The translations under genes were made by a program, and so were the position numbers. This document shows, piece by piece, positions 8,042 through 44,125 of a DNA stretch of 63,841 nt. How positions within the stretch are numbered: position 1 is the first letter of the stretch; the number at the start of each line of letters is the position of its first letter. Origin of the DNA: an uncultured bacterium (lineage in GTDB: Bacteria > Verrucomicrobiota > Kiritimatiellia > RFP12 > UBA1067); contig CAIZQW010000287.1 in NCBI GenBank assembly GCA_903935195.1, positions 1-63,841 on the forward strand. Direction: 5' to 3'. The notes beneath the pieces are model-generated. The model had not been told where the DNA came from and made no database searches. It was given only the letters and a program-made list of their open reading frames with translations.

Positions 8042-8154
8042 ATACCAAAACAGGATGAAAAGTTGCCATATTATGAAGAAGGCAGGCTCAAAATGAAAGT
8101 CTATTTTTCAGACGCTTTCAATGACAAAGATGAAACGACAACGCTAAAATAACA

Positions 8155-8184
8155 AACGCCGAAGGGTGTGTCTCCTTCGGCGTT
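8155..8184 (-). terminator. GC-rich hairpin with a T-run on the minus strand (candidate intrinsic terminator)
   Basis: AACGCCGAAGG (8155-8165) pairs with CCTTCGGCGTT (8174-8184) around an 8-nt loop. On the minus strand it is followed by TTGTTATTTT. Confidence 0.5.
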
Positions 8185-8203
8185 CGTCCTGTGTAACACA
8201 GGA

Positions 8204-8261
8204 GTGTGGTGTAATTTATATAATTTGTGTGTGTGTGTGGTGTATATCTAGTTGTGGTGTG
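8204..8261. repeat. TG-rich word repeats (GTGTGGTGT x3) including a (TG)7 microsatellite at 8226-8239
   Basis: GTGTGGTGTA occurs at 8204-8213 and 8235-8244, and TGTGGTGTG at 8253-8261. The perfect palindrome CCTGTGT-A-ACACAGG lies at 8188-8202. Confidence 0.85.
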
Positions 8262-8337
8262 TGTATGAAAAAAGTAATAATACTATAGCAACTGTCATGC
8301 CAGATCATTTTATGCTGTTTTTTCGTCACTTTTTACC

Positions 8338-8382
8338 TAAAAAAGAATAAAACACCCAGGGTAGGGTGTTTTATTCTTTTTT
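8338..8382. terminator. Bidirectional intrinsic terminator downstream of lpxD
   Basis: A 12-bp stem, AATAAAACACCC (8346-8357) pairing with GGGTGTTTTATT (8364-8375), has a 6-nt loop. It is flanked by an A-run upstream and CTTTTTT downstream. Confidence 0.75.
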
Positions 8383-8463
8383 GGAGCCCTTCTCGCTGCA
8401 TTCAACTAAATGCATTAAAAAGAAAAGCTGCCTATTACAGTATACAGTGCGTCAGAAGGTCAC

Positions 8464-9510
8464 CTATTGCGCATCAAGTTGGCTTAACTTCGCTTCTAGG
8501 GCAGCAACCCTGGCCTTCAACTTATCAACGGTACGAGGCAGGAGCAATTGGGCGCCAAGTTCCCGACGCGGCACTGCTGGCAACCCAAGATAGAACTCGC
8601 CAGGAGGCACATCTTTGGAGAGTCCGCTTGCAGGCCCCACCTGGCCACGATCACCGATCGTCAAATGGCCCGAAATGCCTGCTTGAGCCCAAATGATACA
8701 GCCCTGTCCAATGTGGGTACTTCCCGCCACACCTGCTTGCGCAATGATGCCACTGTAGTCCCCGACTTGAACATTGTGCCCCAACTGGACAAGGTTATCA
8801 ATCTTGACGCTGTTCCCGACGCGGGTGCGACCGAAACGAGCCCGGTCAATGGTGGTGTTACAACCGATCTCCACATCATCACCCAGTTCCACAATACCGA
8901 TCTGGGGAATCTTCTCGATCGTGATTGAGCCGTCAGGCTTGATAACCGGATTAAAACCATAGCCATCGCCCCCGAGTCGCACACCCGAGTGGAGAATGAC
9001 GCGGTCACCAATGATGGTGCCTTCGCGCACAGTGACCTGTGCATAAATGAGGCCGCCGTTACCAATCTTAACATTGGCCCCGATAAAGACCTGCGCTTCG
9101 ATCACGCAACGATCCCCGATCACGGTGTTCTCGTCAATCACCGTATAAGCCCCAACAGAGACCTCTTTCCCGAGCTGAACATTCTGCCCAATGATGGCCG
9201 TGGGATGAACGCCTGGCAACCGCACAACCGGGGGTGGCGCATACAAGGCCCCTACGTGGGCAAAAGCCGCATTCGGACTCTCCACACGGATCACAGAACG
9301 TGCAGAGCAGTCCCCCGACCAATCCCGGGGCACGAGAACACAACTTGCCTTGGTGGTCGCCAGTTGTTTTCCATACTTGGAATCGGTGAAGAAACTAATG
9401 TCACCTGCGCGAGCTTCGCTCAAACTGGACATTGCAACGATCTCTACAGAGCCATCTCCTTCGAGCTGGCCTGAGAGTTTATCAGCGATCTCTTGTGCAC
9501 GCATCTTCAT
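8464..9510 (-). CDS. lpxD: UDP-3-O-acylglucosamine N-acyltransferase
   Basis: From ORF 8464..9582, trimmed to MKMRAQEIADKLSGQLEGDG. It has a long left-handed beta-helix hexapeptide-repeat region and lies in the conserved bamA-skp-lpxD order. Confidence 0.9.
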   Translation of the reverse strand: MKMRAQEIADKLSGQLEGDGSVEIVAMSSLSEARAGDISFFTDSKYGKQLATTKASCVLVPRDWSGDCSARSVIRVESPNAAFAHVGALYAPPPVVRLPGVHPTAIIGQNVQLGKEVSVGAYTVIDENTVIGDRCVIEAQVFIGANVKIGNGGLIYAQVTVREGTIIGDRVILHSGVRLGGDGYGFNPVIKPDGSITIEKIPQIGIVELGDDVEIGCNTTIDRARFGRTRVGNSVKIDNLVQLGHNVQVGDYSGIIAQAGVAGSTHIGQGCIIWAQAGISGHLTIGDRGQVGPASGLSKDVPPGEFYLGLPAVPRRELGAQLLLPRTVDKLKARVAALEAKLSQLDAQ

Positions 9511-9514
9511 AGGA

Positions 9515-10105
9515 TTACTTCTTAGCAGCTGCTGCCTTCTTCTCGGCCTCTTCCTTGGCTTCCTTACGGACCTTCGGATCAATACCCATACGCTTCAGGA
9601 CATCATCTGTCACATCTAGCTTGGGATCAAAATACGCAAGCGTCGAGGCATCCATCACGATCGAGGTCTTGGTGTCCTTAGCATATTTGGTGATGGTCTC
9701 GCGGATCTCATTGGTGACCTGGCGTAACAGACGGGTGTCTTGGTCGCCTAACTCGCGTTGAAGCTTCTGAGCCTCTTGGCGCAGATCGCGTTCAGCCTCA
9801 GCAACCACATCGCGCTGCTTAAGCGCCTTGTTTTCAGCCTCAGCGCGCGCCTTGTCGCTCAACACAGGGTTGCGCGTCTCCTTGGCACTGCGTTCGAAAT
9901 CTTCGCGGAGTTGCTCAAAGCGCTCACGACGTTTATCCAGCTTGCCTTGGTACTCCTTCTCCATATCCACCATCAGCTTGCGGTCGCGTTCACGGTTCGG
10001 ATGAAACCGGATCAGGTCGATCATATTGACAACAACGGTCTTTTCCTCGGCAAAACCCACCAGTGCGGACATCAGGACCGCGACCATTAGACATGTAGCT
10101 TTCAT
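9515..10105 (-). CDS. skp: OmpH/Skp family periplasmic chaperone
   Basis: 196 aa with a signal peptide and a charged coiled-coil body. It lies between bamA and lpxD. Confidence 0.85.
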   Translation of the reverse strand: MKATCLMVAVLMSALVGFAEEKTVVVNMIDLIRFHPNRERDRKLMVDMEKEYQGKLDKRRERFEQLREDFERSAKETRNPVLSDKARAEAENKALKQRDVVAEAERDLRQEAQKLQRELGDQDTRLLRQVTNEIRETITKYAKDTKTSIVMDASTLAYFDPKLDVTDDVLKRMGIDPKVRKEAKEEAEKKAAAAKK

Positions 10106-31754: not shown

Positions 31755-31984
31755 TCTAGTGAGTTTCCCTGTCCGTGATAGAGAGCAAAAGAGTAGCTGA
31801 ACAGGGGGCGCTTTGCAACCCCTTATTCGTGCTGAAACGGAAAGGAAGTCTATTATATTTCCCTGTTTAGGTTTGCGTTTAACATATCGGCTATGGACGA
31901 GCCGTAACCAGTAGAAACGTCTTCACCAAGGATATAGATCTACGACACCTCGTCCGCCTCGCACCTCCGAAGACAGTGTAGAAG

Positions 31985-32596
31985 CTATTGCGCTGGCCAA
32001 ATATTCTCGCGATCAAGCCGTATTTCGATAACGGGAATATTAACGCCATATTTATCCGACAGTTTGTCAGCAAAAGAGTGTCTTAAATCTGGAAGGGTAC
32101 GCCAATGAGGTAAAATTTGTGCAACCTGGTGGCTAAACAAATCAAAATCCGCTTGTAATCGAGAATGAGGAACGAGAAGTCGTCCGGCAAATTCATTAGC
32201 CTCCTGTTCTATTCGATATCGTGCTGGGCTATCCTCGTGCAGCCAGCGGAAAAAGTCGGTAAAATTCGAGAATTTGTGTTTGGTTGCCTCCGCTTTATGC
32301 AGAACAAAGTGGCCCAATTCATGCGCGAACGTGAATCGTAACCGCTTTTGCTTCCAAACTGGCCCTTTCTCAAGATATTGATAGGCCTCTGCATCGACAT
32401 AGATGCCTGTGAAATTCTGAAGAAGCATCGCATCCATGTTATACTTGGCAAAGAGGTCGTCAAAGGGGATGATGTCTAACTTTAAATCGAGCTCAGCGAC
32501 GGTAAAGACATCGATGGGCAAAGAGGCCTGCGATCCAGAAAAATAGGTGTCGCGAAATTCCTCTGCCCGCTCCCAGATAGGGTCTATGCCGTTCAT
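31985..32596 (-). CDS. ImmA/IrrE family (M78) zinc metallopeptidase
   Basis: HEXXH in FAHELGHFVLH, plus the downstream EQEANEFAGRLLVP motif typical of ImmA/IrrE. Its start overlaps the stop of the XRE gene by 4 nt. Confidence 0.85.
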   Translation of the reverse strand: MNGIDPIWERAEEFRDTYFSGSQASLPIDVFTVAELDLKLDIIPFDDLFAKYNMDAMLLQNFTGIYVDAEAYQYLEKGPVWKQKRLRFTFAHELGHFVLHKAEATKHKFSNFTDFFRWLHEDSPARYRIEQEANEFAGRLLVPHSRLQADFDLFSHQVAQILPHWRTLPDLRHSFADKLSDKYGVNIPVIEIRLDRENIWPAQ

Positions 32597-32976
32597 TCAG
32601 CCGTCTCCTTGTCTGGCGAGTGAAGAGCCTTGAGATCCTGAATGAACTGCTCCATTTTCGCCTGATCCATTTCGTTACTTCTCACCGCACGGAAAAATGC
32701 CGGTAAGGCTTGGAGCAGAAGTCCATCCGTGGCAAGGTCCGATGGCAATTCACGCCTCGACAGAGCAGCCGCATCGAAGAACACCTGACGTTCGTTTGCC
32801 TCTAGCTTGAAAAATGAGGCCCACTGTTCCAAGACTCCAGTGTCTTTAGGTGCCGGATGGATGCCGCGTTCCATCTTGCTCCAGTTGCTTGGGTCGATGC
32901 CAAGCTCGGCACTGCACTGACGCAGTGTCAGCCGATTTGCGATACGTGTGTTTTTGAGTAATTCGCCAAAGTTCAT
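32593..32976 (-). CDS. XRE-family helix-turn-helix transcriptional regulator
   Basis: From ORF 32593..33012, trimmed to MNFGELLKNTRIANRLTLRQCSAELGIDPSNWSKMERG (HTH_3 pattern). Confidence 0.85.
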   Translation of the reverse strand: MNFGELLKNTRIANRLTLRQCSAELGIDPSNWSKMERGIHPAPKDTGVLEQWASFFKLEANERQVFFDAAALSRRELPSDLATDGLLLQALPAFFRAVRSNEMDQAKMEQFIQDLKALHSPDKETAE

Positions 32977-32989
32977 AATCCTCTCCCTT

Positions 32990-33012
32990 GTGTGGTAAAA
33001 ATAATACCACAC
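32990..33012. promoter_or_regulatory. Perfect inverted repeat GTGTGGTA-N7-TACCACAC just upstream of the XRE start (candidate operator)
   Basis: The arms are 32990-32997 and 33005-33012, 14-36 nt upstream of the ATG at 32976. No T-run follows on the minus strand. Confidence 0.4.
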
Positions 33013-33094
33013 TCAGGGCGAGGACTTAAAGAGTATTTTTAAAAGGTTTAAAAAAATCAGGAGATTGCGCTAAAGAACCGTAAGGAAATCAACC

Positions 33095-33718
33095 TTAGTT
33101 CCCCTTCGGCACTACCACATACCCCTCTTTTGGTTCGCCGTAGCATGTGATTTGATTTCGCCTGAAGGCTTCTGCGGTAACAGCGCAGAGTGCGGCATCA
33201 ACGAGATCGATGTTGGTCAGGAGGGTGATGTCGAGTCCGAGCGTGCTCAATACCTCACGACGGACACGCGTCTTCGGATGGGCCGGAACAATACGACCGC
33301 TTAAGGCGCATACAATAGCATGGGGAAAGGTTTCGAAACAGACCCGTTTTGCCTGACGCTTTCCCGTGTACAATGAAAAGTGCTTGCCCAGGGCTTTAAA
33401 GAGTTTCTCGCCATTCAGCATCCAGCTATAAAAAGGATTTTCCTTGGCGCGCTCCCGGGTCGGCGTATAAAAACAGTGCATCCCCTCTTGATTCAAGAGG
33501 CGTTCCGCTTTCCGGTGTTTGCCCGCAACACTCCACATGCATGGCGCATCCACACCCACAACAGAGGCTTCCTGCTCCAGACACCACTCCATTATCGCCA
33601 TCGGATCCCAGTCTGTCTTTCTCCCGCAGATCTGCCCCTCACGCATCACTACCGCATGAAAGCCCTTCCGAGCGCCGCCTACATCGATTCCAATGACTGT
33701 GTTGTTTGAGCGTTTCAT
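33095..33718 (-). CDS. DUF429-family predicted RNase H-fold nuclease
   Basis: From ORF 33095..33820, trimmed to MKRSNNTVIGIDVGGARKGFHAVV. This IGID-x-GG-x-KG start is characteristic of DUF429. The start lies 1 nt after the stop of the upstream orphan gene. Confidence 0.7.
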   Translation of the reverse strand: MKRSNNTVIGIDVGGARKGFHAVVMREGQICGRKTDWDPMAIMEWCLEQEASVVGVDAPCMWSVAGKHRKAERLLNQEGMHCFYTPTRERAKENPFYSWMLNGEKLFKALGKHFSLYTGKRQAKRVCFETFPHAIVCALSGRIVPAHPKTRVRREVLSTLGLDITLLTNIDLVDAALCAVTAEAFRRNQITCYGEPKEGYVVVPKGN

Positions 33719-33719
33719 A

Positions 33720-34871
33720 TCATTTAGTAGCTGACTGCAAATGGTGGTGTTCATATTGTTTAAGCAGAAAACTATCAATTTTTTCAATGAGGGGGTTGAT
33801 CTCTGAAAGAAAAGGATCAAAGACTTTCAGATTAGCTTTGTGAAAACTATCAAGGTGCTCAACATATGCCTCGATCTTTCTAAAGCATTGTATCAAACAG
33901 TTCTTTGATATTTTAGATGTTCTTATCTTCGGTTTTTCGCAAGTATCAGGTTTCCGATTTAATAAAACAATTTTGTCAAGTATATGTAACAACTGAACTG
34001 TTGTCACAGATTGTGAAATCAATCCCGTTGGTGTATGGCCTTTATACTTGAATTCATAATACGCTTTGAAGAAGTTGTGCAAGAAGTTAAAATCAAGATT
34101 TTTATTTCTGAGTGCGCCATAGAAATAGCTCCTCCGCCCATCCTCGTTTTTTGTTTCAATTTTGCCTGATAAATCTCTTCTTTCGTTCGCGTCAAATATT
34201 CGAAAAACTTTGTACTTTTCGCCATCCAAAAAAAGTCCATCAAGATAGCTACGCATATATTGACCAAGGTCAAAGGACTTTACCGCTTCAGTAATTTTAA
34301 ATAACGCAGGATCTTGAAAAGCTTCCTTACAGGCGATGAATAACATAAGCGATTCTAGCCTAAAAAGTCGCTTTTCTTTAAATCCAAAATTCAAGAGTTT
34401 TCCATCTGCGTTAATTTTTGAAGGCAGGGTGTCTAGATAGGATCCCGGAACTTCGACATCAGAAAATTTGAGAGCTGTAGAGATTTGTTCATTACACAAT
34501 GATGCAAATCTACGACGAACGAGCTCATTAATATGCCATAGATAAACAAATCCAAACTGGTTAGCGTTCCAAAATGCGGCCCTTAAAATAAGTGGTTCGG
34601 CAAGTTGATTAGCAATTGATGGAGTAAGAGAATGAAATAAAGCATGAATAAGCATTAAAGCAGGCGGGGCCGTGTTCGCCATTGTTTTAGAAATAATCAA
34701 CCGAGTCTCATCCTCTGTTTGCTCTTTACCGCTTAAGCAGTTTCGAAAGAATCTAATTATTTTTAACTTGTCTCGCTTATCGCTGTTTTGAACTTTATCA
34801 AAAGCATCAAAGAGAATTAGCCAGTAAAATAAAGATCGGAACAACGTGAAATCATTTATTCTTTGATTCAT
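33720..34871 (-). CDS. Hypothetical 383-aa protein with no recognisable motif
   Basis: A long uninterrupted ORF in AT-rich DNA, tightly abutting the DUF429 gene. It looks helical, and I could find no catalytic motif. Confidence 0.7.
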   Translation of the reverse strand: MNQRINDFTLFRSLFYWLILFDAFDKVQNSDKRDKLKIIRFFRNCLSGKEQTEDETRLIISKTMANTAPPALMLIHALFHSLTPSIANQLAEPLILRAAFWNANQFGFVYLWHINELVRRRFASLCNEQISTALKFSDVEVPGSYLDTLPSKINADGKLLNFGFKEKRLFRLESLMLFIACKEAFQDPALFKITEAVKSFDLGQYMRSYLDGLFLDGEKYKVFRIFDANERRDLSGKIETKNEDGRRSYFYGALRNKNLDFNFLHNFFKAYYEFKYKGHTPTGLISQSVTTVQLLHILDKIVLLNRKPDTCEKPKIRTSKISKNCLIQCFRKIEAYVEHLDSFHKANLKVFDPFLSEINPLIEKIDSFLLKQYEHHHLQSATK

Positions 34872-35046
34872 TCGGTAATCTCGTATTGCGAAAAGTTACA
34901 AGAATACGTGCTTATTTACAATACAATAGTTTGGGAGGCCTAAATAATCCTTTGTTCAATGCATAACACTTTATAGAAGAACAACTTATAAAATCAAAAT
35001 GCTTACTATCGTGAGTCAACCGCTTTCGTATATTCTAATTCTTGTC

Positions 35047-35096
35047 GACCACAAAACAGTTTTGTGGTCCCAACAACAGAACAACAGGAACAACAA
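35047..35096. repeat. Perfect palindrome GACCACAAAAC-A-GTTTTGTGGTC followed by tandem AACAACAG words
   Basis: The palindrome is at 35047-35069. The words caacaacag, aacaacag and gaacaacaa are at 35071-35096. Confidence 0.85.
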
Positions 35097-35192
35097 ATGA
35101 ATACACTCAATAAAGGTGGCGGAGCAGGTTATCCCAGTACGACAGGCAGGCCATCGGGCGGTGGACGCGACAATGGATCCCGCGGTAAATAA
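35097..35192 (+). CDS. Possible 31-codon Gly-rich small ORF (MNTLNKGGGAGYPSTTGRPSGGGRDNGSRGK); may instead be a repeat-element core
   Basis: ATG at 35097, TAA at 35190-35192, with a terminator-like hairpin downstream. There is no clear RBS. It contains AGGTGGCGG (35114-35122), which is shared with the repeat core at 50981-50989. Confidence 0.2.
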   Translation: MNTLNKGGGAGYPSTTGRPSGGGRDNGSRGK

Positions 35193-35200
35193 ACCCAAGC

Positions 35201-35238
35201 TGGGCTTGCCGTTGCAAATCGGCACGCCCAGTTTCTTT
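35201..35238 (+). terminator. Terminator-like hairpin followed by GTTTCTTT
   Basis: TGGGCTTGCCG (35201-35211) pairs with CGGCACGCCCA (35220-35230) around an 8-nt loop, followed by a T-rich tail. Confidence 0.45.
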
Positions 35239-35373
35239 ACCCCTTGATTAGTCCACCTCTATCTCCGCCTTGAAATGCTGCCTCTCTTATCTCGAAATTG
35301 CTATTGTTCAAAGCACCCTTAAAATGGTACTTTAAAAATCTCTAACATACACAACGAAAGGAGGCAAGGCGTA

Positions 35374-35955
35374 ATGGGGCGGCATACACATATTCCTGAA
35401 CTTCTGCTATTGATATTCTTCTTCGGCGTGTTGCCTTTGTTGTATTTTGCGTTTAATTGGATGAAGAAAATATTTTTTCCAGAAGAATACGTCTTATGGA
35501 AAAAAATTGGAGGAACATATCCAGATGATCCATACAACGGCATTCAGATGCCAAGCTTTTCAGATCAGACGATATATTCAGTGAGAGGTGTCTCGTATGG
35601 ACAATGGAGGACGGAATTCCTGGAGTGGCTTAAACATCGGACGATAAAGCACAAAGTTAAAAGGTATTCTTGGCTTGGGTCAAGGATGCTTGATGGAAAA
35701 GACTGGGCAGCAGAAGACAGACAGTGGGCTAAGCACTATGAGATATGGCACAGAGATATCTATAGACCGGAAGAAACGAAAAGATACGCCCATTTAAAGC
35801 AAATTAATGAATCGCACAAGAGCCAGTTAATTGGCGAATTCATTTCTGTTTATGCAAGACAACCCAAGTCTTACCATTATGATAGGTGTACAAACATAGT
35901 TCGCGATTTTGGAGCCTATTCACCTGTTTATGATAAAAACGGGCGATTATTATAG
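35374..35955 (+). CDS. Hypothetical 193-aa protein with an N-terminal transmembrane helix
   Basis: A strong RBS (GAAAGGAGG) lies 8 nt upstream. The LLLLIFFFGVLPLLYFAF segment is hydrophobic. No known motif was found. Confidence 0.6.
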   Translation: MGRHTHIPELLLLIFFFGVLPLLYFAFNWMKKIFFPEEYVLWKKIGGTYPDDPYNGIQMPSFSDQTIYSVRGVSYGQWRTEFLEWLKHRTIKHKVKRYSWLGSRMLDGKDWAAEDRQWAKHYEIWHRDIYRPEETKRYAHLKQINESHKSQLIGEFISVYARQPKSYHYDRCTNIVRDFGAYSPVYDKNGRLL

Positions 35956-35965
35956 TACTGCGCAT

Positions 35966-36913
35966 TTATTCAGTCTGCTTTGTATCCGAGACCTTCTTCC
36001 TCGTCAAGCTGGACGCGTCTTCTATGGGAATTATTCCTTCTTCAGGTGGCATGTTGTCGGCAAATGTTTGGTAGCGGATGGAAGTGGGGGTTAAAAGATC
36101 GCAATTTCTTCCTGTACAGACGAAGTTAAACTTTTTTGTGATTACGCCTTGCGGAAAGAGTGGTTGGTCCGAATGATTGCTTCCTGTGAGTCGTCTAACT
36201 TTAGTCTTCCCGTCATCTAGCAGTTCTATGGTTGTGCCTGGAATCTCGATGAAATTACCATCAATGTGGACGGGGAGCTCCATTCTTGTCATCACGTATC
36301 GAGCAAAGACGTTGGAGAGATTTGTAACTCGCCAAAAGATATTGTTTTCTCCTCCCAACTGATTAAAATTCACATAGATCTCGGTTTTGACTTTAGGATT
36401 CTGCTTCCGGTTGAGAATGTCTAATACGGCTCGATGACCGATCGCATTGAGCTTAGAACCAATGCGTGTATAGTACTTTTTGTCATTAGCTTGGTGTGGT
36501 GCTACATCACTCGGCGGAATGTGAATGACGATCAGGCCCCGACCGGAGGAGAAGGAGTTGCCAGCAGGGTCCGTGACGACATGGATGTTAAGTTTTGGAA
36601 TCGATGGATCGGTTAGGTTCGGAATTATATCTTCAAGCCAGGATTTCAGACCCTGTTTACCTCCCTTTTTATTTAAGTCAACTCCTTCATCCAGTTCCAA
36701 AGGCTTTCCACCATGAGGATTACGGATTCCCAAAACTAAGAATCCCCCGTCGTAGTTGGCAAACGCAGAGACATATTCAGACAGTTCATCTAAGAATTTG
36801 CCGTTATCCACCCATCGACTATCCTTGAAATCAAGCCAATCAAACTCTCCGACCGGAAGGCCGCGAACATAATCCAAGTCCCATTGCGATATGTCTTTAA
36901 GCTGTGTATTCAT
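35966..36913 (-). CDS. AlbA_2 (Schlafen-like) DNA-binding domain protein with an unknown C-terminal domain
   Basis: FDWLDFKDSRW...LSEYVSAFANYDGGFLVLGIRNP matches the AlbA_2 core pattern E-x-EFK ... AFANT-GG-L-x-G. Confidence 0.7.
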   Translation of the reverse strand: MNTQLKDISQWDLDYVRGLPVGEFDWLDFKDSRWVDNGKFLDELSEYVSAFANYDGGFLVLGIRNPHGGKPLELDEGVDLNKKGGKQGLKSWLEDIIPNLTDPSIPKLNIHVVTDPAGNSFSSGRGLIVIHIPPSDVAPHQANDKKYYTRIGSKLNAIGHRAVLDILNRKQNPKVKTEIYVNFNQLGGENNIFWRVTNLSNVFARYVMTRMELPVHIDGNFIEIPGTTIELLDDGKTKVRRLTGSNHSDQPLFPQGVITKKFNFVCTGRNCDLLTPTSIRYQTFADNMPPEEGIIPIEDASSLTRKKVSDTKQTE

Positions 36914-36974
36914 AATTTTTATACAGAACCGTTAGTAACCCGCGATCGGCAAGCCGCATTTTGTTCATTCACTT

Positions 36975-37043
36975 TTAACTTTTTTGGCCCTTCCGCGAGC
37001 CTCCCACATCAATTCCGATGACTATAATATTTAAGGTTTTCAT
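36975..37043 (-). pseudogene. Decayed 5' stub of a second DUF429 gene (22 codons, then a stop)
   Basis: Hand translation gives MKTLNIIVIGIDVGGSRKGQKS*. It matches MKRSNNTVIGIDVGGARKG of the intact DUF429 gene at 14/19 aa and 44/58 nt by my own alignment. Confidence 0.7.
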
Positions 37044-37095
37044 GGGGGTAAAAAGAGGTGAAATAACTTGATGGGGCTTCTTGCCTTCCGCAGTA

Positions 37096-39030
37096 TTATT
37101 TTGATCGAGTAAGAATATTTGTTACACTCGGTGACTTCATAAGTGTACCCAGTGAGGGGTTCAGTTTCAGTGCTTTTTCAAAGTGCGGTTGACTTGCTGC
37201 AATCGCACCTGTTTGAGAGAGCGCAACAGCAAGGTAAAAATAACTTTCAGCATGTGAAGGATTAAGTTTGCAAGACTCTTGATAGTGTGCAATCGCTCCT
37301 TGCATATCACCCTGGTTAAGACATGAATTTCCCAAATTGAAACTGTACATGCCGAGGTTGTAGGTTGCCATTGTAGATGCCGGCAGTGAGGGTGGAAGGT
37401 TCGTAATAACTCGATAGTCCGCCATTGCCTTTTCGATATCACCTTTCTTGATATAGACGGAGGCGCGATTGCCATACGCGGCACAATCTTTTGGATTGTT
37501 GGTTATGACCTTTGAGAAATATTCGAGTGCTGCATCTTCACGCCCACTTATTGCATCGTCCAGTGCCTCGTAAGTGGACAGCAAAGAAACGTTACCTTCC
37601 GTTCGCAATGATGTGTTCAGTCGCATCACTTCCTTTAAATCCCGAGCTGCCTGACTATATTTACTTTCTTTAGCAAAAGCTAAACTTCGCGCGATATATG
37701 CTTGTTCCATGTCTGGTCGCCTAGCAATAGCTTTATTAAATTCAAAAATTGCATTGCTAATAGAATTTTCGTTAAATAACGCCACACCTTTACTGTAGTA
37801 CGGCCATTCATTTGTATAGCCTAATAGAATTGCCTGATCGAAATCCCGTCGCGCTTCACTATATCGGTCCAACTCGCTCAATACTACTCCCCTCTCGTAT
37901 ATCAGACTTGCTTTGTTAGTGCCTGAGAGGGAAATGGCCTTAGAATAATTGGTGAGTGCTTCGTCTTTACGACCAAGGCTTTGAAGACATTGAGCCATAT
38001 GGGCATACGTTAAGGGATCGTCAGGCAGTAACGAAAGTGCCTTCAAGCTGTCTTGATAGGCATCTTGTAAACGGCCTTTCATTAACCGTATGCCGGTTCG
38101 GTTGCCATAAGCTACGCCAAGAGATGGATTCATTTGAATTGCACGTGTTAATTCTCTTTCTGCCGAATCAAAGTCCCCCGCCAAAATCAAACTGTTCGCA
38201 TTTGTAACTCTATAAGCTCCCGCGATCGGTGTGGTGCTCATTGAACCCAGCATGTGCATTGTTCCAGGGCCAAGTGACCTTATTCCCATTGCATCAAACC
38301 TTGGGAATTCGAGTCCAGATGAACCATCCTCAAGCATTAAACTTGCTGGAGGCGCGTTTGTGAAAAAAGAAACCGAAGAAAGGAAGTAATGTTCGCCTGG
38401 CGGCAAAGTTTTAAATGATTGATTACGGATACGAAATCCGGCATTCGCTTTTGGCGGAAGATGTGAAATTGTTAGCCAAAAAGCCTCATGATCTGTGGTG
38501 TCTCGTCCATGCATAACCGTTCCGTGAAATGCAATGAGTGCCTGATTAAATGGATCGCCAGAAATTGGTTGGGGCATCGCTGCGTTTGACGGTACATCAA
38601 TCATCTCCACCCCTACATCATTATTTGTCAATGAAAGTGTTGAAGAGCTGAGTTGAAGCTTAACGGTTACCTGATAAAGATCCACCTCGCCAATATTTCG
38701 GATAAAGAAGTTGTTTATGGTCTTTTTGGTGCCCAAACCGAGATCGATTCGCGTAGACGATAGGACTATGACTTCTTTAGTCTTTGGGAAATAGTAACTA
38801 CGTAGACCCAGTGTATCGTTCCAAAAACCAATGACAAGCGGAATCATAGTAAAAAACATGAACCAAAAATATTTCAAAAACCGAGTTTTTTGGGATATGG
38901 GTTGTTGCTCAAATGGTGTTGATGTCGGAGCGGGCACGGGCGTTTTGTGCGGCGCTTTCAAATGAACCTTCGGAACCCATTTTTTCCGTTTTTTCTTTTT
39001 GTTTTTGCTCATTTGTTGCGCAACTTTCAC
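37096..39030 (-). CDS. Membrane-anchored TPR-repeat protein
   Basis: 644 aa. It has a Lys-rich N-terminus and a TM helix (FLKYFWFMFFTMIPLVIGFW). An unknown domain of about 230 aa follows, then about 10 TPR-like repeats (AYGNR..., AESYFYLAVAL...). Confidence 0.75.
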   Translation of the reverse strand: MKVAQQMSKNKKKKRKKWVPKVHLKAPHKTPVPAPTSTPFEQQPISQKTRFLKYFWFMFFTMIPLVIGFWNDTLGLRSYYFPKTKEVIVLSSTRIDLGLGTKKTINNFFIRNIGEVDLYQVTVKLQLSSSTLSLTNNDVGVEMIDVPSNAAMPQPISGDPFNQALIAFHGTVMHGRDTTDHEAFWLTISHLPPKANAGFRIRNQSFKTLPPGEHYFLSSVSFFTNAPPASLMLEDGSSGLEFPRFDAMGIRSLGPGTMHMLGSMSTTPIAGAYRVTNANSLILAGDFDSAERELTRAIQMNPSLGVAYGNRTGIRLMKGRLQDAYQDSLKALSLLPDDPLTYAHMAQCLQSLGRKDEALTNYSKAISLSGTNKASLIYERGVVLSELDRYSEARRDFDQAILLGYTNEWPYYSKGVALFNENSISNAIFEFNKAIARRPDMEQAYIARSLAFAKESKYSQAARDLKEVMRLNTSLRTEGNVSLLSTYEALDDAISGREDAALEYFSKVITNNPKDCAAYGNRASVYIKKGDIEKAMADYRVITNLPPSLPASTMATYNLGMYSFNLGNSCLNQGDMQGAIAHYQESCKLNPSHAESYFYLAVALSQTGAIAASQPHFEKALKLNPSLGTLMKSPSVTNILTRSK

Positions 39031-39085
39031 AAGCGATACTTATGGATTGAAACTGCTAGCCTAATCCTCCGATGTAACACGTTTC

Positions 39086-41578
39086 TCACTCCCCCCAAAC
39101 CCGGGCGAGGGTAGTTTGGATTTTCTTCTCGAAGCGGGTGATGAGGTCGCGGTTGGCGTTGACAAGGGCTTGCTCAGCTTCAATCTCCGCAACAATTGCA
39201 CGCTGCGTCTCGATAGGAGGGAGGGGGATTTTCTGTTCCCGAACAAAGGAGAGATTCGCCATGCGAAACTTGCCTTCGCCTAACTTCAAAAACTCTGGAT
39301 AAAGTTGCTGTGCAGCATGAAATAGATATACCGGCTCCAGCACCTCCCGTGATTTGGGATAAATACCGGCGATGTTCTGATTCGTCGTGGATTCAAACTT
39401 CAAGATGGCGGTCTTGCCAATCGTTGCTCCTACCAACGCTATCAAAGTGGTATCTTTTGGAAGGATCTTAGCGGCAGAGTTCTTCAAGCCAGCATCGGTG
39501 ATGAACTCCTCAGCTTGTGTCACCTCTCCATCTTTACACACCGTTGAGCCAACCCAAGGAATGTGCCCGTTCCAGTAGGAATCCTCGGCACGGCTGGGCG
39601 TACCTCCTGAGCGGACCTCGCAAATTTTCTCAAGTGGCTCCATCGGCCACGTTGGATCGACGGGGATGTGGGGGCGGTAGTTGTTGAGGACGGTGCGGGC
39701 ACCGTTGATGATTTTCTGGTAGCCCTCAATCTCTGCCACGATCTCTTTCTGGATTTCAAGTGGAGGGAGGGGAATTTGGAACTGTTCTACATATCCCTTC
39801 GGCACTCGTTGTAGCCCACCTGTCCCAGTCATTTGTGCAATAGCAGATTCCCTGAAAGTCGAATGCATTAAGCAAAAGTAAATGTATTCGGCAAGAACGC
39901 AGTTGCTTGGTCGAAAAACATAAAATTCACTTGATCCAAAGCCCGTGCTGTTAACTAAGCCTTTGGCAATACCCGCTTTACCATTTTCAAAACAAGGTGT
40001 GACCTTTGCGAGCAGCACATCACCATCAGCAAAATAGGTATAACTTGCGCCCAACTCGCTGATTTTACGGGTTTCCTTGGCCTGAAACATTATTCTGTTT
40101 TCACCAATATCACTCATGGGCACAAAGGAAACAAGCGTGTCGGGCGGCAAGGTGAGCCCTTCGCGTTTTGGCGGGTTGATCGTGCAAACCGTTGCGAGCG
40201 GAACATGAGGGAAATGGGCACTGGATGCAGCCCCTTCCCGATACCGTTCTCCGCTCAGATTGTAGTCGCCATTGGTGGCGATCTTTTCTTTGGGAATGAC
40301 AAGACCTGTGGTTAGCGTGAGTTCGTCTGCGGACTGTCCACGGCGGAGGGCTTGGAGATAGGTATGTAGTTCGGCTTTGACTTGCGGCAGATCGTTCTTG
40401 GTGATTTCACGGCGCTGGGCGCCGAGGCCGAAGCCGTCATTTTCGACCTTGAAGAAGGCGATGGTTTTTGCCTTTTTAGCAAGGGTCTTATCGAGGATGA
40501 GGATCGATGTCTTAACGCCTGAGTAGGGATTGAAGCAACCTGCCGGAAGGGATATAACCGCGACAAGGGAGTTTTCGACGAGCATCTTGCGCAGGCTCTT
40601 GTAAGCATCCTGGCTCTGGAAGATGATGCCTTCAGGGACGATGATGCCGGCGCGTCCGTTCGGCGTGAGGTGTTCAGCCATGTAGTCCACGAAAAGGACT
40701 TCGCTGCGCTTGGCCTGGATGGAGAAGCGCTTGTGGGGCTTGATACCACCCTTTGGCGACATGAAGGGCGGGTTGGCTAAAATTACATCGGCGAAGTCGT
40801 TCCAGCGCTCTTCGGAGGTGAGGGTGTCGTACTCGTAGATATGCGGGGCGGCGAAGCCGTGCAGGTAGAGGTTCACGAGCGAGAGGCGCACCATATCAGG
40901 CGAGATGTCGTAGCCCTTGATATTTTCAGCGAGGCGACCACGCTCTTCAGGGGTGAGGGAGGAGTGGCCTTTGGCGTGGGTGTTGGCCTTGAGGATGTGC
41001 TTGTAGGCGGAGATGAGGAATCCAGCCGTGCCACAGGCGGGATCGAGGATGGTCTCGTTCTTCTTGGGATCAAGGACTTCGACCATGAAATCAATAATAT
41101 GGCGCGGGGTGCGGAACTGTCCAGCGTCGCCTTGGGAACCAAGGACACTGAGAAGGTATTCAAAGGCATCGCCGAGGCGTTCGCTGTGGTCGTAGCTGAA
41201 TTCATCAATGATCTTGAGGAACGCCTTGAGCGTCTCGGGGTCGCGATAGGGCAGATAGGCGTTCTTGAAGATATCGCGGAAGAGCAGCGGGATGCCGGGA
41301 TTTGCGGGCATCTTGTCGATAGCCTCTGCGTAAAGGGCGAGGGTCTCGTGTCCGCCCAGCCCAGAACGCATGAGCTTGGCCCAACCGTAGCGGGCGAAGT
41401 CGCCTGCGAAAAACTTACGCTTGCCGCCCAGCTCCGCAGATTCGGCATCCATGTCGTCCATGAATTTGTAAATCAGGGCGATGGTGATCTGTTCGACTTG
41501 GGATTTGGGGTCTGGTACTTTGCCCACAAGGATGTCGCGGGCGGAGTCGATGCGGCGCTTGGTCTCGGTGTCTAACAT
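39086..41578 (-). CDS. hsdM: Type I restriction-modification methyltransferase fused to a specificity subunit (HsdM-HsdS)
   Basis: N6-adenine MTase motifs are present (DPACGTAGFL, ILANPPFMSP). Two TRD regions follow, each closed by an HsdS conserved helix: PLPPLEIQKEIVAEIEGYQK and PLPPIETQRAIVAEIEAEQA. Confidence 0.85.
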   Translation of the reverse strand: MLDTETKRRIDSARDILVGKVPDPKSQVEQITIALIYKFMDDMDAESAELGGKRKFFAGDFARYGWAKLMRSGLGGHETLALYAEAIDKMPANPGIPLLFRDIFKNAYLPYRDPETLKAFLKIIDEFSYDHSERLGDAFEYLLSVLGSQGDAGQFRTPRHIIDFMVEVLDPKKNETILDPACGTAGFLISAYKHILKANTHAKGHSSLTPEERGRLAENIKGYDISPDMVRLSLVNLYLHGFAAPHIYEYDTLTSEERWNDFADVILANPPFMSPKGGIKPHKRFSIQAKRSEVLFVDYMAEHLTPNGRAGIIVPEGIIFQSQDAYKSLRKMLVENSLVAVISLPAGCFNPYSGVKTSILILDKTLAKKAKTIAFFKVENDGFGLGAQRREITKNDLPQVKAELHTYLQALRRGQSADELTLTTGLVIPKEKIATNGDYNLSGERYREGAASSAHFPHVPLATVCTINPPKREGLTLPPDTLVSFVPMSDIGENRIMFQAKETRKISELGASYTYFADGDVLLAKVTPCFENGKAGIAKGLVNSTGFGSSEFYVFRPSNCVLAEYIYFCLMHSTFRESAIAQMTGTGGLQRVPKGYVEQFQIPLPPLEIQKEIVAEIEGYQKIINGARTVLNNYRPHIPVDPTWPMEPLEKICEVRSGGTPSRAEDSYWNGHIPWVGSTVCKDGEVTQAEEFITDAGLKNSAAKILPKDTTLIALVGATIGKTAILKFESTTNQNIAGIYPKSREVLEPVYLFHAAQQLYPEFLKLGEGKFRMANLSFVREQKIPLPPIETQRAIVAEIEAEQALVNANRDLITRFEKKIQTTLARVWGE

Positions 41579-41584
41579 GGTTTC

Positions 41585-44125
41585 CTATGCTACGAATTGA
41601 TTGAGGCTGACGTAGTCCTTGATGTATTCGGGGATGAGATCGCGATACTTTTCAGGGACGGCCTTGAAGTCGCGTGTGGAAAAAACAGGATTCGTGGCCA
41701 GTTCGGTGAAGTCGTGGCTTTCGATGATGAGGCGGATCTGATCGCTGATAATGTAGGCCTTGAAATAGGTCTTGAGGGCCGGGATAGCCTCAGCTTCTTC
41801 GGGCTTGATGTCGGAGACGAACTTGGCGAACTCCTCTTCCAGTAGCTCGTCCTTGGACTTGAAACGGGGGATGAGTCCGAAGATTTTTTCGAGGATCTCG
41901 CGCAGCGTCAGTCGGCGGTCCACAGTCGCCGCCCTGCGCAATTTGTCGAGCGTGTAGTACTGCTCCGGCTTGTCGAAGACCTCTTGGTTGACGTACTCAA
42001 TGACACGATCCCATTGGCCCGCTTCAACGGCCTTGGCGATGGTTGCGTTTTCTCGGATGGACGATTCGAATTTCGCGAAGAACATGCGGTCGATCTTCAT
42101 GCCCTCGTAGCCGACGGCTTCTTCTTTGATAGATGAGATGATGTCCGAACCCAGATGCTCATACGCTTCTGGCTTGGCTGGCGGTTCTTCGCCACCGCCA
42201 CCGTCCTTGCCTTTGCCTGTGGGACGCGGCAGGACGAGCACTTCGTCGTAGTTAAAATCCTCTTCGAAATATTCGCAGTTACCAAAGAAGTCAAAAAGCT
42301 TGAACGCCTCTTTATGTGGCTTGACGACATTTTCCTTGAGTTCCACATCAAAAAGCTGGTCCCGAAAATCGTGTGTCCGGGTTCCGCGTCCCTTGATCTG
42401 GATGAAATCAGTCGGCGAGAAGATCGGACGGAAAAGGCCGAGGTTGAGGATGTCCGGGCAGTCATACCCTGTGGTCATCATGCCGACCGTGACGCAGACG
42501 CGCGCTTTGCTGGTCTTGTAGGCGGACAAGAAGTTGGCAGAGCCCAGGAGATTGTTGTTGCTAAAATTGATAGTGAACTGCTGGGCGTCTGGAATCTGAG
42601 AGGTGACCTGGATGGCAAAGTCTGACTGGTATTTCCCTGGAAACATTTTTTCCGCCATGAGATTCAGGATGTTGGCCAGTTTAGCCGCATGGTTCTGGCT
42701 GACGGCATAGATGATGGACTTGCCGATCTCACCGCTGACAGGATCGCGCAGCGCGTTTTCAAGAAAGGTCTTGCAGAAGAGTCCATTGGTGGCATCGGAA
42801 AAGAAGCGCTTTTCAAATTCGCGCTGCTTGTAAGCCTCTTCCTGGTCCTCGCCGGTGTCATCCGTGAAGGTAACGACAAAGCCTTCCTCTGAGAGCAGTT
42901 GCGTGGTGATCTCCGTCCGGGCATCCACGACAACGGGGTTGATCAGAAAGCCATCCTTCACACCGTCGAGCAATGAATATCTGAATGTGGGTTGGCTCTT
43001 CTCGCAACCGAAGGTGCGGTAGGTATCGAGAAGCAGGCGGCGCTCAGCTTCGCGCGGATCGCGAGTTGTCGGGGCGACCTTGTCGAAATGCTTGAGATAG
43101 TCGCGGGGTGTCGCGGTAAGTCCCAGCTTGTAGCCGATGAAATAGTCAAACACCGCGCGGGCATTTCCTCCGATCGAGCGGTGCGCTTCGTCAGAAATGA
43201 CGAGGTCAAAGTCGGTTGGCGAGAAGAGCTTCTGGTACTTGTTGTTGAAGAGCAGGGACTGGACTGTGGTGACGACGACCTCCGCCCGCCGCCAGTCATC
43301 GCGGTTCTCCTTGTAGATGACGGTCTGGAAATCAGCGGACAAAAGAGCAGAGAAGGCCTTTTTGGCTTGGTCTTCCAATTCAAGACGGTCTACCAGAAAG
43401 AGTACGCGCCGGACATTGCCCGAACGTAGAAAGAGCTTTATGATGGCGGCGGCTGTCAGCGTCTTGCCCGTACCAGTGGCCATTTCGAAAAGGAACCGGT
43501 CGTGTCCATCTTTGACTGCGGCCTGCAAGCCCTGGACCGCTTTCATCTGATAGGGACGAAGGAAGCGGAGTTTATTGGCCTGAATATAGCCCGGCCGTTC
43601 CGTCTCCTTCTTCCACGCCGCATCTGACTGATAAAGAGGCCGCTGGGTCAGGACGATATAATCGGCCCCCACCTGTTCTGTGACCAGACGGTTCGCATCA
43701 GGGGTGACCTTATGGTATCCAATGACCGACTCCGGCGTTGGAAAAGAGGTGATGATGTAGGGGCTGCCGCGCTCCAGATCCCAAAAGTAGTGGAGGTTCC
43801 CGTTTGAGAGGATGACAAAGCGGCAATTCTGAGAACGGGCATATTTTCGCGCTTGTTCTTTGCCCACGAACGGATTTTTGTTTTCCGCCTTAGCTTCAAG
43901 AACAATGAGCGGAAAGCCTTTTGCATCGAGGAGGAGAAAGTCAATGAACCCTTTTGAAACCTTTTCAAAGTCATTACCGAGTTCGTCGAGCGCATTCTGT
44001 TTCAGTGTGACACTGGGTTCGAGTTGGATATTGGCGGGGGCGTCACCCTTAGGAAAAAAACGCCAACCTGCAGCTTCCAGCAGGTTGTTAATCTTAATAC
44101 GGGCGTTTGCTTCTTTTTCCGACAA
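41585..44125 (-). CDS. hsdR: Type I restriction enzyme R subunit (HsdR family: PD-(D/E)xK nuclease plus SF2 helicase)
   Basis: N-terminal IDFLLLD...VLEAKA nuclease motif, Walker A MATGTGKT, DEAH box ISDEAHRS, and an EcoEI_R_C-like C-terminus. Confidence 0.85.
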   Translation of the reverse strand: MSEKEANARIKINNLLEAAGWRFFPKGDAPANIQLEPSVTLKQNALDELGNDFEKVSKGFIDFLLLDAKGFPLIVLEAKAENKNPFVGKEQARKYARSQNCRFVILSNGNLHYFWDLERGSPYIITSFPTPESVIGYHKVTPDANRLVTEQVGADYIVLTQRPLYQSDAAWKKETERPGYIQANKLRFLRPYQMKAVQGLQAAVKDGHDRFLFEMATGTGKTLTAAAIIKLFLRSGNVRRVLFLVDRLELEDQAKKAFSALLSADFQTVIYKENRDDWRRAEVVVTTVQSLLFNNKYQKLFSPTDFDLVISDEAHRSIGGNARAVFDYFIGYKLGLTATPRDYLKHFDKVAPTTRDPREAERRLLLDTYRTFGCEKSQPTFRYSLLDGVKDGFLINPVVVDARTEITTQLLSEEGFVVTFTDDTGEDQEEAYKQREFEKRFFSDATNGLFCKTFLENALRDPVSGEIGKSIIYAVSQNHAAKLANILNLMAEKMFPGKYQSDFAIQVTSQIPDAQQFTINFSNNNLLGSANFLSAYKTSKARVCVTVGMMTTGYDCPDILNLGLFRPIFSPTDFIQIKGRGTRTHDFRDQLFDVELKENVVKPHKEAFKLFDFFGNCEYFEEDFNYDEVLVLPRPTGKGKDGGGGEEPPAKPEAYEHLGSDIISSIKEEAVGYEGMKIDRMFFAKFESSIRENATIAKAVEAGQWDRVIEYVNQEVFDKPEQYYTLDKLRRAATVDRRLTLREILEKIFGLIPRFKSKDELLEEEFAKFVSDIKPEEAEAIPALKTYFKAYIISDQIRLIIESHDFTELATNPVFSTRDFKAVPEKYRDLIPEYIKDYVSLNQFVA

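Follow-up and report, generated by a model that had tools for sequence, protein, structure and literature searches.

A probable mosaic defence island combining a type I restriction-modification frame, a DUF429 gene and a CapH/CapP-like regulator pair in an uncultured Kiritimatiellia bacterium

The 63,841-nt stretch of DNA analyzed here, called the window throughout, comes from an uncultured bacterium of the class Kiritimatiellia (contig CAIZQW010000287.1). Coordinates are positions in the window unless a comparison locus or contig (L and P numbers) is named. We conclude that positions 31985-44125 probably form one mosaic anti-phage defence island of independently exchangeable modules, namely a type I restriction-modification (R-M) operon, a DUF429 gene for a predicted nuclease, a cargo slot lying between these two, and a pair of regulatory genes encoding an XRE-family repressor and an ImmA/IrrE-type metallopeptidase (Table 1). 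A first-pass annotation had singled out four genes at one end of this region, a 383-aa orphan, DUF429, XRE and ImmA, and described them as a cassette. These four genes are a juxtaposition of the last cargo gene, the frame gene DUF429 and a CapH/CapP-like pair, and the earlier finding is corrected in that they are not a self-contained system. The analysis covers gene content, synteny, breakpoints, base composition, a putative operator and the DUF429 fold, and biochemical activities and regulatory steps are proposed from these.

The layout given in the first-pass annotation was accurate. The four co-directional minus-strand open reading frames (ORFs) are all present where it placed them, and its spacings are borne out by the sequence: the orphan stop codon TGA (33720-33722) is followed by a single T and the ATG of DUF429, DUF429 and XRE are separated by 118 nt, and XRE and ImmA overlap by the four letters ATGA (32593-32596). 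The three families it named agree with the Pfam matches (E-values 2.7e-22 for DUF429 to PF04250, 1.2e-7 for XRE to HTH_31 and 2.9e-9 for ImmA to Peptidase_M78). The orphan is AT-rich as described, with 35.9% GC and 33% GC at third codon positions (GC3), compared to 52.5% GC in the window and 53-54% in the sulfatase, HsdR, HsdM/S and DUF429 genes. It was overlooked that the low-GC stretch reaches to about 39.0 kb and gives way there to an intact type I R-M pair.

The defence setting proposed for the four genes is corroborated by this R-M pair and by a PADLOC scan of the kind that had been suggested, in which DUF429 matched the PDC-S44 profile PDLC05019 (1.7e-14, a partial match over profile positions 9-147 of 259) and ImmA matched capP (4.4e-16), but the orphan matched nothing. 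The statement that the genes belong to no named system therefore stands for the orphan and fails for DUF429 and for the CapH/CapP-like XRE and ImmA. The view of the four genes as a conserved cassette had to be given up, since the orphan has no homologue and the recurrent partner of DUF429 is type I R-M.

The type I restriction-modification frame and its cargo slot

All components of a type I R-M system are present: HsdR, an HsdM N6-adenine methyltransferase, and an HsdS with two target-recognition domains, with M and S fused. HsdR matches REase_I in PADLOC (1.7e-58) and possesses the N-terminal nuclease region and the SF2 motor. HsdM/S matches N6_Mtase in Pfam (3.5e-50) as well as MTase_I (7.9e-96) and Specificity_I in PADLOC, and Methylase_S is found in two stretches. 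HsdR displays 75-83% protein identity to its counterparts in L006, L007, L008 and L017 and 92% nucleotide identity to those in L083 and L086. Two stretches of hsdM/S, at about 39230-39640 and 39780-40233, have no DNA similarity to relatives that are otherwise 86-92% identical. They are the target-recognition domains of the HsdS-like half, lying between conserved framework segments, and therefore denote swaps of these domains and different DNA specificities between strains.

The cargo slot was delimited by comparison with close relatives whose DUF429 is 75-87% identical to that of the window. The blastn breakpoints are identical in every comparison and fall at 39085, the hsdM/S stop, and at 33718, the DUF429 start. 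DNA similarity at DUF429 is confined to the gene (33718-33099), and similarity to L086 resumes at 31961, 24 bp beyond the ImmA stop; the right-hand flank shared with L086 consists of a double sulfatase and a PabB-like gene. Different genes occupy the slot in the relatives. In L083, HsdR and HsdM/S are followed by PDC-S32, PD-Lambda-3_A and a 232-aa gene before DUF429, and in the P0008 contig by genes of 388, 675 and 205 aa. L086 has the order HsdR, PDDEXK_3, HsdM/S, then DUF4062, PD-T7-4, a dGTPase-like HD gene and a DarG-like gene, then DUF429, a fusion of helix-turn-helix (HTH) and M78 domains, and a 166-aa gene. The cargo of L089, L090 and L003 is a complete Menshen system (NsnA, NsnB and NsnC) between an HsdM/S remnant and DUF429. 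The conserved 3' end of hsdM/S, about 109 bp, persists upstream of the cargo in L003, L087, L089 and L090 at 87-89% identity, with the R-M genes gone. The last cargo genes next to DUF429 (383, 232, 169, 318, 204 and 177 aa) displayed no mutual similarity from locus to locus, and the possibility that they are distant relatives was thereby ruled out. The interval from the hsdM/S stop to the DUF429 start would be hypervariable, each related genome having its own self-contained defence system there. It is most simply read as a hotspot at which the conserved genes on either side permit homologous recombination to exchange the cargo.

Short remnants mark past rearrangements, either of the DUF429 5' end (74-83 bp) or of the hsdM/S 3' end (about 109 bp), and are located at 1701-1783 and 2309-2417 in L087, 10631-10704 in L092, 6556-6655 in L003 and 3430-3538 in L089. 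L087 carries two full copies of DUF429 in one array. The genome of L003 contains another island with R-M genes of this family, L092 (OW818680.1), about 17 kb from the DUF429 of L003. There, HsdR and HsdM/S are followed by Thoeris-like cargo (6044-9537, a 785-aa Nuc_deoxyrib_tr-like protein plus TIR/ThsB) and then by XRE and ImmA. A second insertion point was found between hsdR and hsdM/S, which are only 6 nt apart in the window (41579-41584). Extra genes at this point are a 146-aa PDDEXK_3 gene in L086 (2911-3351) and genes of 92 aa in L007 (5615-5893), 256 aa in L016 (942-1712) and 257 aa in L133 (1462-2235).

The four cargo genes of the window have GC contents of 43.5% (TPR), 44.9% (Schlafen/AlbA_2), 40.0% (p193) and 35.9% (orphan), compared to 53-54%, with a GC3 of 60-67%, in the frame genes, and as AT-rich genes in this position they were probably acquired recently. 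The TPR gene, whose start is placed later by public gene callers, has no PADLOC match and is absent at the slot position in sister loci. The Schlafen/AlbA_2 gene was found only in contigs of the window's own strain, and p193 gave no significant family match in Pfam, NCBIfam, PADLOC or PHROGs. By eye, the N-termini of p193 and the TPR protein contain a hydrophobic segment resembling a membrane anchor, which in the TPR protein comes after a lysine-rich stretch.

The orphan is the last gene in this slot. A word-indexed search of 5.8 billion clustered proteins returned only the orphan itself, and HMMER, run exhaustively over 1.84 billion representatives, added only P0122. The latter, a 434-aa protein with repeats of about 67 residues, was rejected as a repeat artefact: one 30-residue stretch was matched six times, and the misleading E-value of 1.8e-9 to orphan residues 313-358 reflects the added scores of these six repeats. 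There was likewise no family match in Pfam, NCBIfam, PADLOC or PHROGs, and no match in six-frame tblastn searches of phage and plasmid collections. Ten contigs encode the orphan, all from one strain and one locus. At this base composition the chance that 383 successive codons contain no stop is about 8e-13, and the orphan is not a chance ORF. The first-pass annotation had reported no Walker, HExxH, HEPN Rx4-6H or PD-(D/E)xK motif in it; Walker A, HExxH and HEPN Rx4-6H are indeed absent, but one loose match resembling PD-(D/E)xK occurs, which can be put down to chance. Structure prediction with AlphaFold2 (AF2) and Foldseek, also proposed there, succeeded for DUF429, as shown below, but the single-sequence model of the orphan is all-helical with a predicted local distance difference test score (pLDDT) of 37.8, too low to be usable for a fold search. 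Synteny between orphan homologues and DUF429 had been named as a further check; with no homologue anywhere searched, such synteny cannot hold. The orphan thus appears to be a unique occupant of the slot in the window genome, and by position alone it can be put forward as a candidate new defence gene.

The promoter of the orphan must lie within the 502-nt divergent region that separates it from p193, since p193 on the opposite strand cuts the orphan and DUF429 off from upstream transcription. By layout, the two genes are one transcription unit in the window genome. An inverted-repeat scan of this region found a perfect palindrome, GACCACAAAAC-N1-GTTTTGTGGTC, at 35047-35069. It contains ACCACA/TGTGGT like the half-sites of the putative XRE operator, but in the opposite relative order, and is unrelated to that operator. 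An imperfect 15-nt inverted repeat is located at 35197-35234. Promoter and terminator scans gave counts not above the shuffled expectation and were not used, and an Rfam scan of the island including the divergent region found no match.

The joint transcription unit, with its one-nucleotide junction, and the defence-island setting are what could be said for the proposal of the first-pass annotation, in which the four genes are a dedicated damage-inducible abortive-infection system and the orphan is the sensor or the partner of DUF429. This we consider improbable. The orphan is unique to the window strain, no XRE operator lies upstream of it, and the equivalent position in relatives is taken by unrelated genes or by HsdM/S itself. 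One of these unrelated genes is NsnC, which belongs to the cargo's own Menshen system and is therefore not a partner of DUF429. A conserved sensor or partner role of the orphan is thus not upheld.

Table 1. Positions of the genes and other features of the island and of its parts in the window.
Feature	Position	Strand	Description
HsdR, type I restriction subunit	41585-44125	-	846 aa; HSDR_N, ResIII and SWI2_SNF2; 5' frame of the island
Fused HsdM-HsdS	39086-41578	-	830 aa; N6_Mtase and two Methylase_S; two target-recognition domains
Conserved hsdM/S 3' end, about 109 bp	39085-39196	-	Left-hand boundary of the cargo slot
Cargo gene 1, TPR-repeat protein	37096-39030	-	644 aa as longest ORF, 587 aa by public gene callers; Pfam TPR_1/2/8
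Cargo gene 2, Schlafen/AlbA_2-domain protein	35966-36913	-	315 aa; PF04326 (3.4e-12)
Cargo gene 3, p193	35374-35955	+	193 aa; divergent from the orphan
Divergent intergenic region p193/orphan	34872-35373		502 nt; must hold the promoter of orphan and DUF429
Cargo gene 4, orphan	33720-34871	-	383 aa; last in the slot, abuts DUF429
DUF429, RuvC-like nuclease (predicted)	33095-33718	-	207 aa; PF04250; 3' frame of the cargo slot
Putative XRE operator	32990-33012		GTGTGGTA-N7-TACCACAC; 13 nt upstream of the XRE start; spacer with -10-like TATTAT
XRE-family repressor	32593-32976	-	127 aa; HTH_31
ImmA/IrrE-type Zn metallopeptidase	31985-32596	-	203 aa; Peptidase_M78; short, CapP-like

The DUF429 gene: fold and neighbourhood

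The longest ORF of DUF429 starts with TTG at 33820, but the alignment of homologues favours the ATG at 33718. The protein matches PF04250 with 80 bits (cutoff 23) over profile positions 1-213 of 214 and belongs to a subfamily with more than 1000 matches at 50-87% identity. Its AF2 model, built from a 23-sequence alignment, is confident (pLDDT 91.3, predicted template modelling score 0.91). The top Foldseek match in the PDB is a Holliday-junction complex of Thermus thermophilus RuvC (4ld0, probability 1.0, target template modelling score 0.58-0.60), and the top matches in BFVD are phage RuvC resolvases. A sequence match of the DUF429 profile to a PDB entry (Rh5-interacting protein, E=0.0036) was rejected as spurious. 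D12, D57, D171 and D174 are invariant; D12 ends strand 1 and D57 ends strand 4. DUF429 was placed in the RuvC/resolvase clade of the RNase H-like superfamily (clade D) with predicted nuclease activity, and the criterion given for this fold was that strands 1 and 4 carry acidic residues that are conserved (Majorek et al. 2014). The model has acidic residues at both positions, and we predict that DUF429 is a RuvC-like metal-dependent DNA nuclease. In the literature searched, only four papers name DUF429 as a whole word, none of them connects it with defence or R-M, and we found no biochemical data.

Neighbours of DUF429 were clustered in a census of 80 species-level genome loci. The only neighbour clusters that recur across lineages are HsdR-like (15 loci) and HsdM-like (13 loci), always on the strand of DUF429, and HsdR846- or HsdM/S-like genes or remnants are present in 19 of the 80 loci. 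The order HsdR, HsdM/S, DUF429 with stop/start overlap is found in L006, L007, L008 and L017, which come from four phyla (Nitrospirota, Thermodesulfobacteriota, Dehalococcoidales and Akkermansiaceae lineages). A different HsdR family is located directly upstream of DUF429 in L041. In L051, L053 and L079, DUF429 is embedded in an operon with the order hsdM, hsdS, DUF429, in some cases another gene, and hsdR. In the window, hsdM/S and DUF429 are 5.4 kb apart with the cargo between them. Other genes immediately upstream of DUF429 are PDC-M68B, PDC-S11, a NERD nuclease and some housekeeping genes. Judged from this synteny, the widest and most repeated partner of DUF429 seems to be type I R-M. On two Burkholderia replicons (L177 1628-7639 and L178 1588-7654), DUF429 closes a conserved operon whose preceding genes encode a DNA-repair exonuclease resembling SbcD, an AAA ATPase of 1156 aa and an HD-domain protein, which makes it the last gene of a second and unrelated DNA-processing machine.

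The exactness of the breakpoints raises the question whether DUF429 itself moves the cargo, as a RuvC/IS110-like recombinase that captures and exchanges genes like an integron-like docking enzyme. The breakpoints fall at the DUF429 start in all cargo variants, L087 has a duplicate DUF429, L087 and L092 retain 5' remnants of 74-83 bp, and the RuvC-like fold weakly matches that of the IS621 recombinase (8wt6, E=0.08). However, no att-like motif or repeat 5' of the start codon is conserved across 17 junctions, and DUF429 is a single domain of 207 aa. IS110 transposases have a second catalytic domain, which DUF429 lacks. Conserved flanks and ordinary homologous recombination suffice to account for the cargo swaps, and DUF429 was judged unlikely to be mobile by Majorek et al. 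(2014). We therefore regard a recombinase role as very improbable and retain the hotspot reading of the slot.

The XRE-ImmA pair and its relation to DUF429

ImmA represents a conserved family of 203-aa proteins with an invariant HELGH motif (H92, E93, H96). Its sole PDB relative is CapP (7t5t, 1e-9), in the peptidase domain only. The alignment ends at chain residue 151 and about 50 residues remain, so that a full GAF domain is unlikely in a protein of 203 aa, compared to the 291 aa of CapP. ImmA also matches families in which HTH and M78 domains are fused, namely RmrA in PADLOC and the spr1629 repressor/antitoxin in NCBIfam. XRE has HTH_31 over residues 3-63 and a C-terminal extension of about 60 aa, a CapH-like layout, and is 92% and 91% identical to the XRE proteins of L087 and L092.

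A survey of 81 metagenomic and genomic loci of the ImmA family found XRE in 75, and DUF429 in one plus one remnant. Upstream neighbours were of defence type in eight of ten sampled loci (four MmeI-type IIG enzymes, a type I HsdR, a BrxH/DrmD-like helicase, HerA and a PD-T4-6-like kinase), and most downstream neighbours were defence-like too. The pair thus appears to be a separate CapH/CapP-like two-gene module that is usually found beside R-M or other defence genes. A palindrome just 5' of XRE is the putative operator. It is retained even in loci whose XRE protein is only 66% identical and occurs once per locus in the 40 loci checked, and also in L173-175. No second copy was found in the window with up to three mismatches allowed. 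By analogy with CapH/CapP, the pair would be an autoregulated switch released by proteolysis.

ImmA and XRE match phage metalloprotease and repressor PHROGs, and an XRE/ImmA pair in an immunity region has an established precedent in ImmR/ImmA of ICEBs1. One could accordingly regard the pair as the immunity region of a prophage or an integrative and conjugative element, with the neighbouring genes as its cargo. We rejected this reading as hardly credible. Neither the island nor the window contains an integrase, a recombinase, a tRNA or a gene for phage structure, PHROGs gave no match to the orphan, p193 or DUF429, the flanks are housekeeping genes shared with L086, and most sampled neighbours of this XRE-ImmA family are R-M or other defence genes.

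A more serious alternative is that DUF429, XRE and ImmA are the real unit, that is, PDC-S44 under a CapH/CapP-like damage-inducible switch, with R-M and cargo as mere neighbours. XRE, ImmA and DUF429 follow each other in this order in L173-175, with a 12-nt gap before DUF429, the operator upstream, and identities to the window of 77% for DUF429 and 89% for ImmA. The distant L118 has the same order. A 74-bp remnant of DUF429 is located directly after ImmA in L092, XRE overlaps DUF429 in L087, and a non-homologous HTH-M78 fusion comes after DUF429 in L086, L087, L089/L090 and L176. In the loci with the order XRE, ImmA, DUF429, control of DUF429 by the switch follows from the layout, and it is plausible that an M78 switch governs DUF429 in the window clade. 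However, hidden Markov models of the ImmA, fusion and XRE families found no match near DUF429 in the 80 species-level loci, just one of the 81 ImmA-family loci contains DUF429, and the XRE-ImmA pair adjoins many other defence genes. In the window, DUF429 is upstream of the sole operator, and direct control is therefore not evident. The control of DUF429 by XRE and ImmA implied in the first-pass annotation thus agrees with the adjacency in the clade and with the XRE-ImmA-DUF429 loci elsewhere, but not with the window itself, where the operator is only at the XRE promoter, downstream of DUF429. We consider this three-gene unit unlikely, though it overlaps with the mosaic reading and differs from it mainly in emphasis.

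At the ATGA stop/start overlaps, modules have been swapped exactly. One and the same XRE, at 92% identity, runs into DUF429 in L087 (6539-6542) but into ImmA in the window, in L092 and in L173. At the position of XRE-ImmA, L086 (10797-12417), L087 (7333-8953) and L089 (7736-9356) carry a 370-aa fusion of HTH and Peptidase_M78 followed by the 166-aa gene, and these two genes are 87-95% identical across the three loci. In view of the matches of ImmA to RmrA and spr1629, the fusion and the 166-aa gene may be a toxin-antitoxin-like module. XRE and ImmA of the window are not a split form of this fusion, which was ruled out since the HEXXH region alone aligns.

Several observations weigh against a mosaic of independent modules. 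About three quarters of the DUF429 genome loci have no R-M genes nearby, so that the linkage is frequent and not obligatory. Some neighbours of DUF429 are housekeeping genes, for example OpcA and an HI0933-like oxidoreductase, and the enrichment of R-M genes was judged by a rough expectation (well under 2% of random 20-kb windows) and not by a neutral-gene baseline. Moreover, DUF429 adjoins an M78-type regulator in six of ten contexts in the window clade, in several orders and with two non-homologous regulators, which fits a closer tie between DUF429 and regulator than independence implies. The orphan stop codon is 1 nt from the DUF429 start and both genes share a promoter region, which leaves room for a physical partnership of the two proteins in the window genome. 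With these points considered, the mosaic island of exchangeable modules is still the reading that we hold to be probable.

Proposed mechanism and comparison with known systems

The horizontally mobile type I R-M system, consisting of HsdR and the fused HsdM/S, would restrict unmodified DNA. DUF429 would be the translationally coupled third gene of the R-M operon in its simplest relatives. Its place at the 3' end of, or inside, DNA-targeting operons of three type I R-M families and of SbcCD-like type suggests an accessory or second-line nuclease working alongside DNA-targeting machines. It may be kept in check like the R-M-linked PrrC, or it may cut DNA structures made by translocating enzymes. 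XRE would bind the palindrome, which overlaps its own promoter, and ImmA, by homology, would cleave XRE after a DNA-damage or infection signal and thereby de-repress XRE-ImmA and the genes downstream. The downstream gene would be DUF429 in sister genomes; in the window DUF429 lies upstream.

A bolder version is possible, and we offer it as tentative. The hsdM/S and DUF429 genes would be a dedicated, horizontally mobile docking frame for defence genes, DUF429 would represent a new class of R-M-linked, RuvC-like second-line nucleases that act on DNA, analogous to PrrC and, in the window clade, under a short CapH/CapP-like switch, and the orphan, p193, TPR and Schlafen/AlbA_2 cargo would, by position alone, be new anti-phage genes without relatives in present databases.

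DUF429 is a large family with no assigned biology, and the link of one of its subfamilies to R-M and to the cargo slot suggests a concrete function open to testing. The cargo found in the slot elsewhere includes validated defence systems (Menshen, PD-T7-4 and PD-Lambda-3). The frame can therefore serve as a discovery tool, in which genes between the hsdM/S stop and the DUF429 start are strong defence-gene candidates even when they have no detectable relatives. The conserved operator of the widespread short CapH/CapP-like pair can likewise be used for regulon mapping.

Among known systems, the Escherichia coli prr locus has the order hsdM-hsdS-prrC-hsdR (prrA-prrB-prrC-prrD), and the type Ic enzyme EcoprrI silences its anticodon nuclease PrrC until a phage anti-restriction factor activates it (PMC1484252, PMC3458546). 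In both cases a type I R-M operon contains, or has attached to it, an additional gene for a nuclease, and the layout of L051, L053 and L079 mirrors prr. However, DUF429 consists of one RuvC-like domain (207 aa), whereas PrrC combines an ABC-ATPase with a tRNA anticodon nuclease, and DUF429 is linked to R-M in about a quarter of its loci, whereas for prrC such linkage is reported in every case. DUF429 would be at most an analogue of PrrC and not a member of its family.

The CapH/CapP proteins regulate cyclic oligonucleotide-based anti-phage signalling systems (CBASS) and other immune operons and have relatives in DdrO/IrrE and ImmR/ImmA (Lau et al. 2022; Calloji et al. 2026). CapH consists of an N-terminal HTH and a C-terminal domain for oligomerisation in which the cleavage site lies, and it binds a specific promoter site; CapP is a Zn metallopeptidase with a GAF domain at its C-terminus, and ssDNA binds in the groove between the two domains. 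The window pair resembles them in its HTH repressor with a C-terminal extension, its M78 peptidase with HEXXH, its association with defence genes and the palindromic putative operator in the promoter region. It differs in the length of the protease (203 aa compared to 291 aa in CapP), which probably lacks a full GAF domain, and in arrangement. CapH/CapP are normally divergent and upstream of the regulated immune operon, with which they share a promoter (Lau et al. 2022), whereas the window pair is co-directional and 3' of DUF429, and pairs of its family are co-directional within or after defence genes.

The DUF429 of the window matches the profile of PDC-S44. However, PDC-S44 is a single-gene candidate from enrichment, while here DUF429 and type I R-M recur together as a frame, joined within its clade by M78 regulators. 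RuvC is its best structural match. In both proteins an acidic residue follows strand 1, and the D-x-x-D pair in the C-terminal helix of DUF429 (D171, D174) resembles D138 and D141 of E. coli RuvC. It differs from RuvC in an identity of only 15-16%, about 50 extra residues, the lack of a ruvAB context and a role that is not housekeeping.

Defence-island hotspots with conserved flanks are known from P2 and P4 phages and from core-gene-flanked sites in the E. coli pan-genome. The slot shares with them conserved flanks, interchangeable cargo of differing base composition and sharp homology breakpoints. It differs in that the flanks are the defence genes of one operon, hsdM/S and DUF429, and not phage or core genes, and in that the frame has spread across phyla, with 75-83% identity at protein level. 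The region is probably a defence-island hotspot with a putative R-M-linked accessory nuclease and a CapH/CapP-type regulator, all of them of known kinds.

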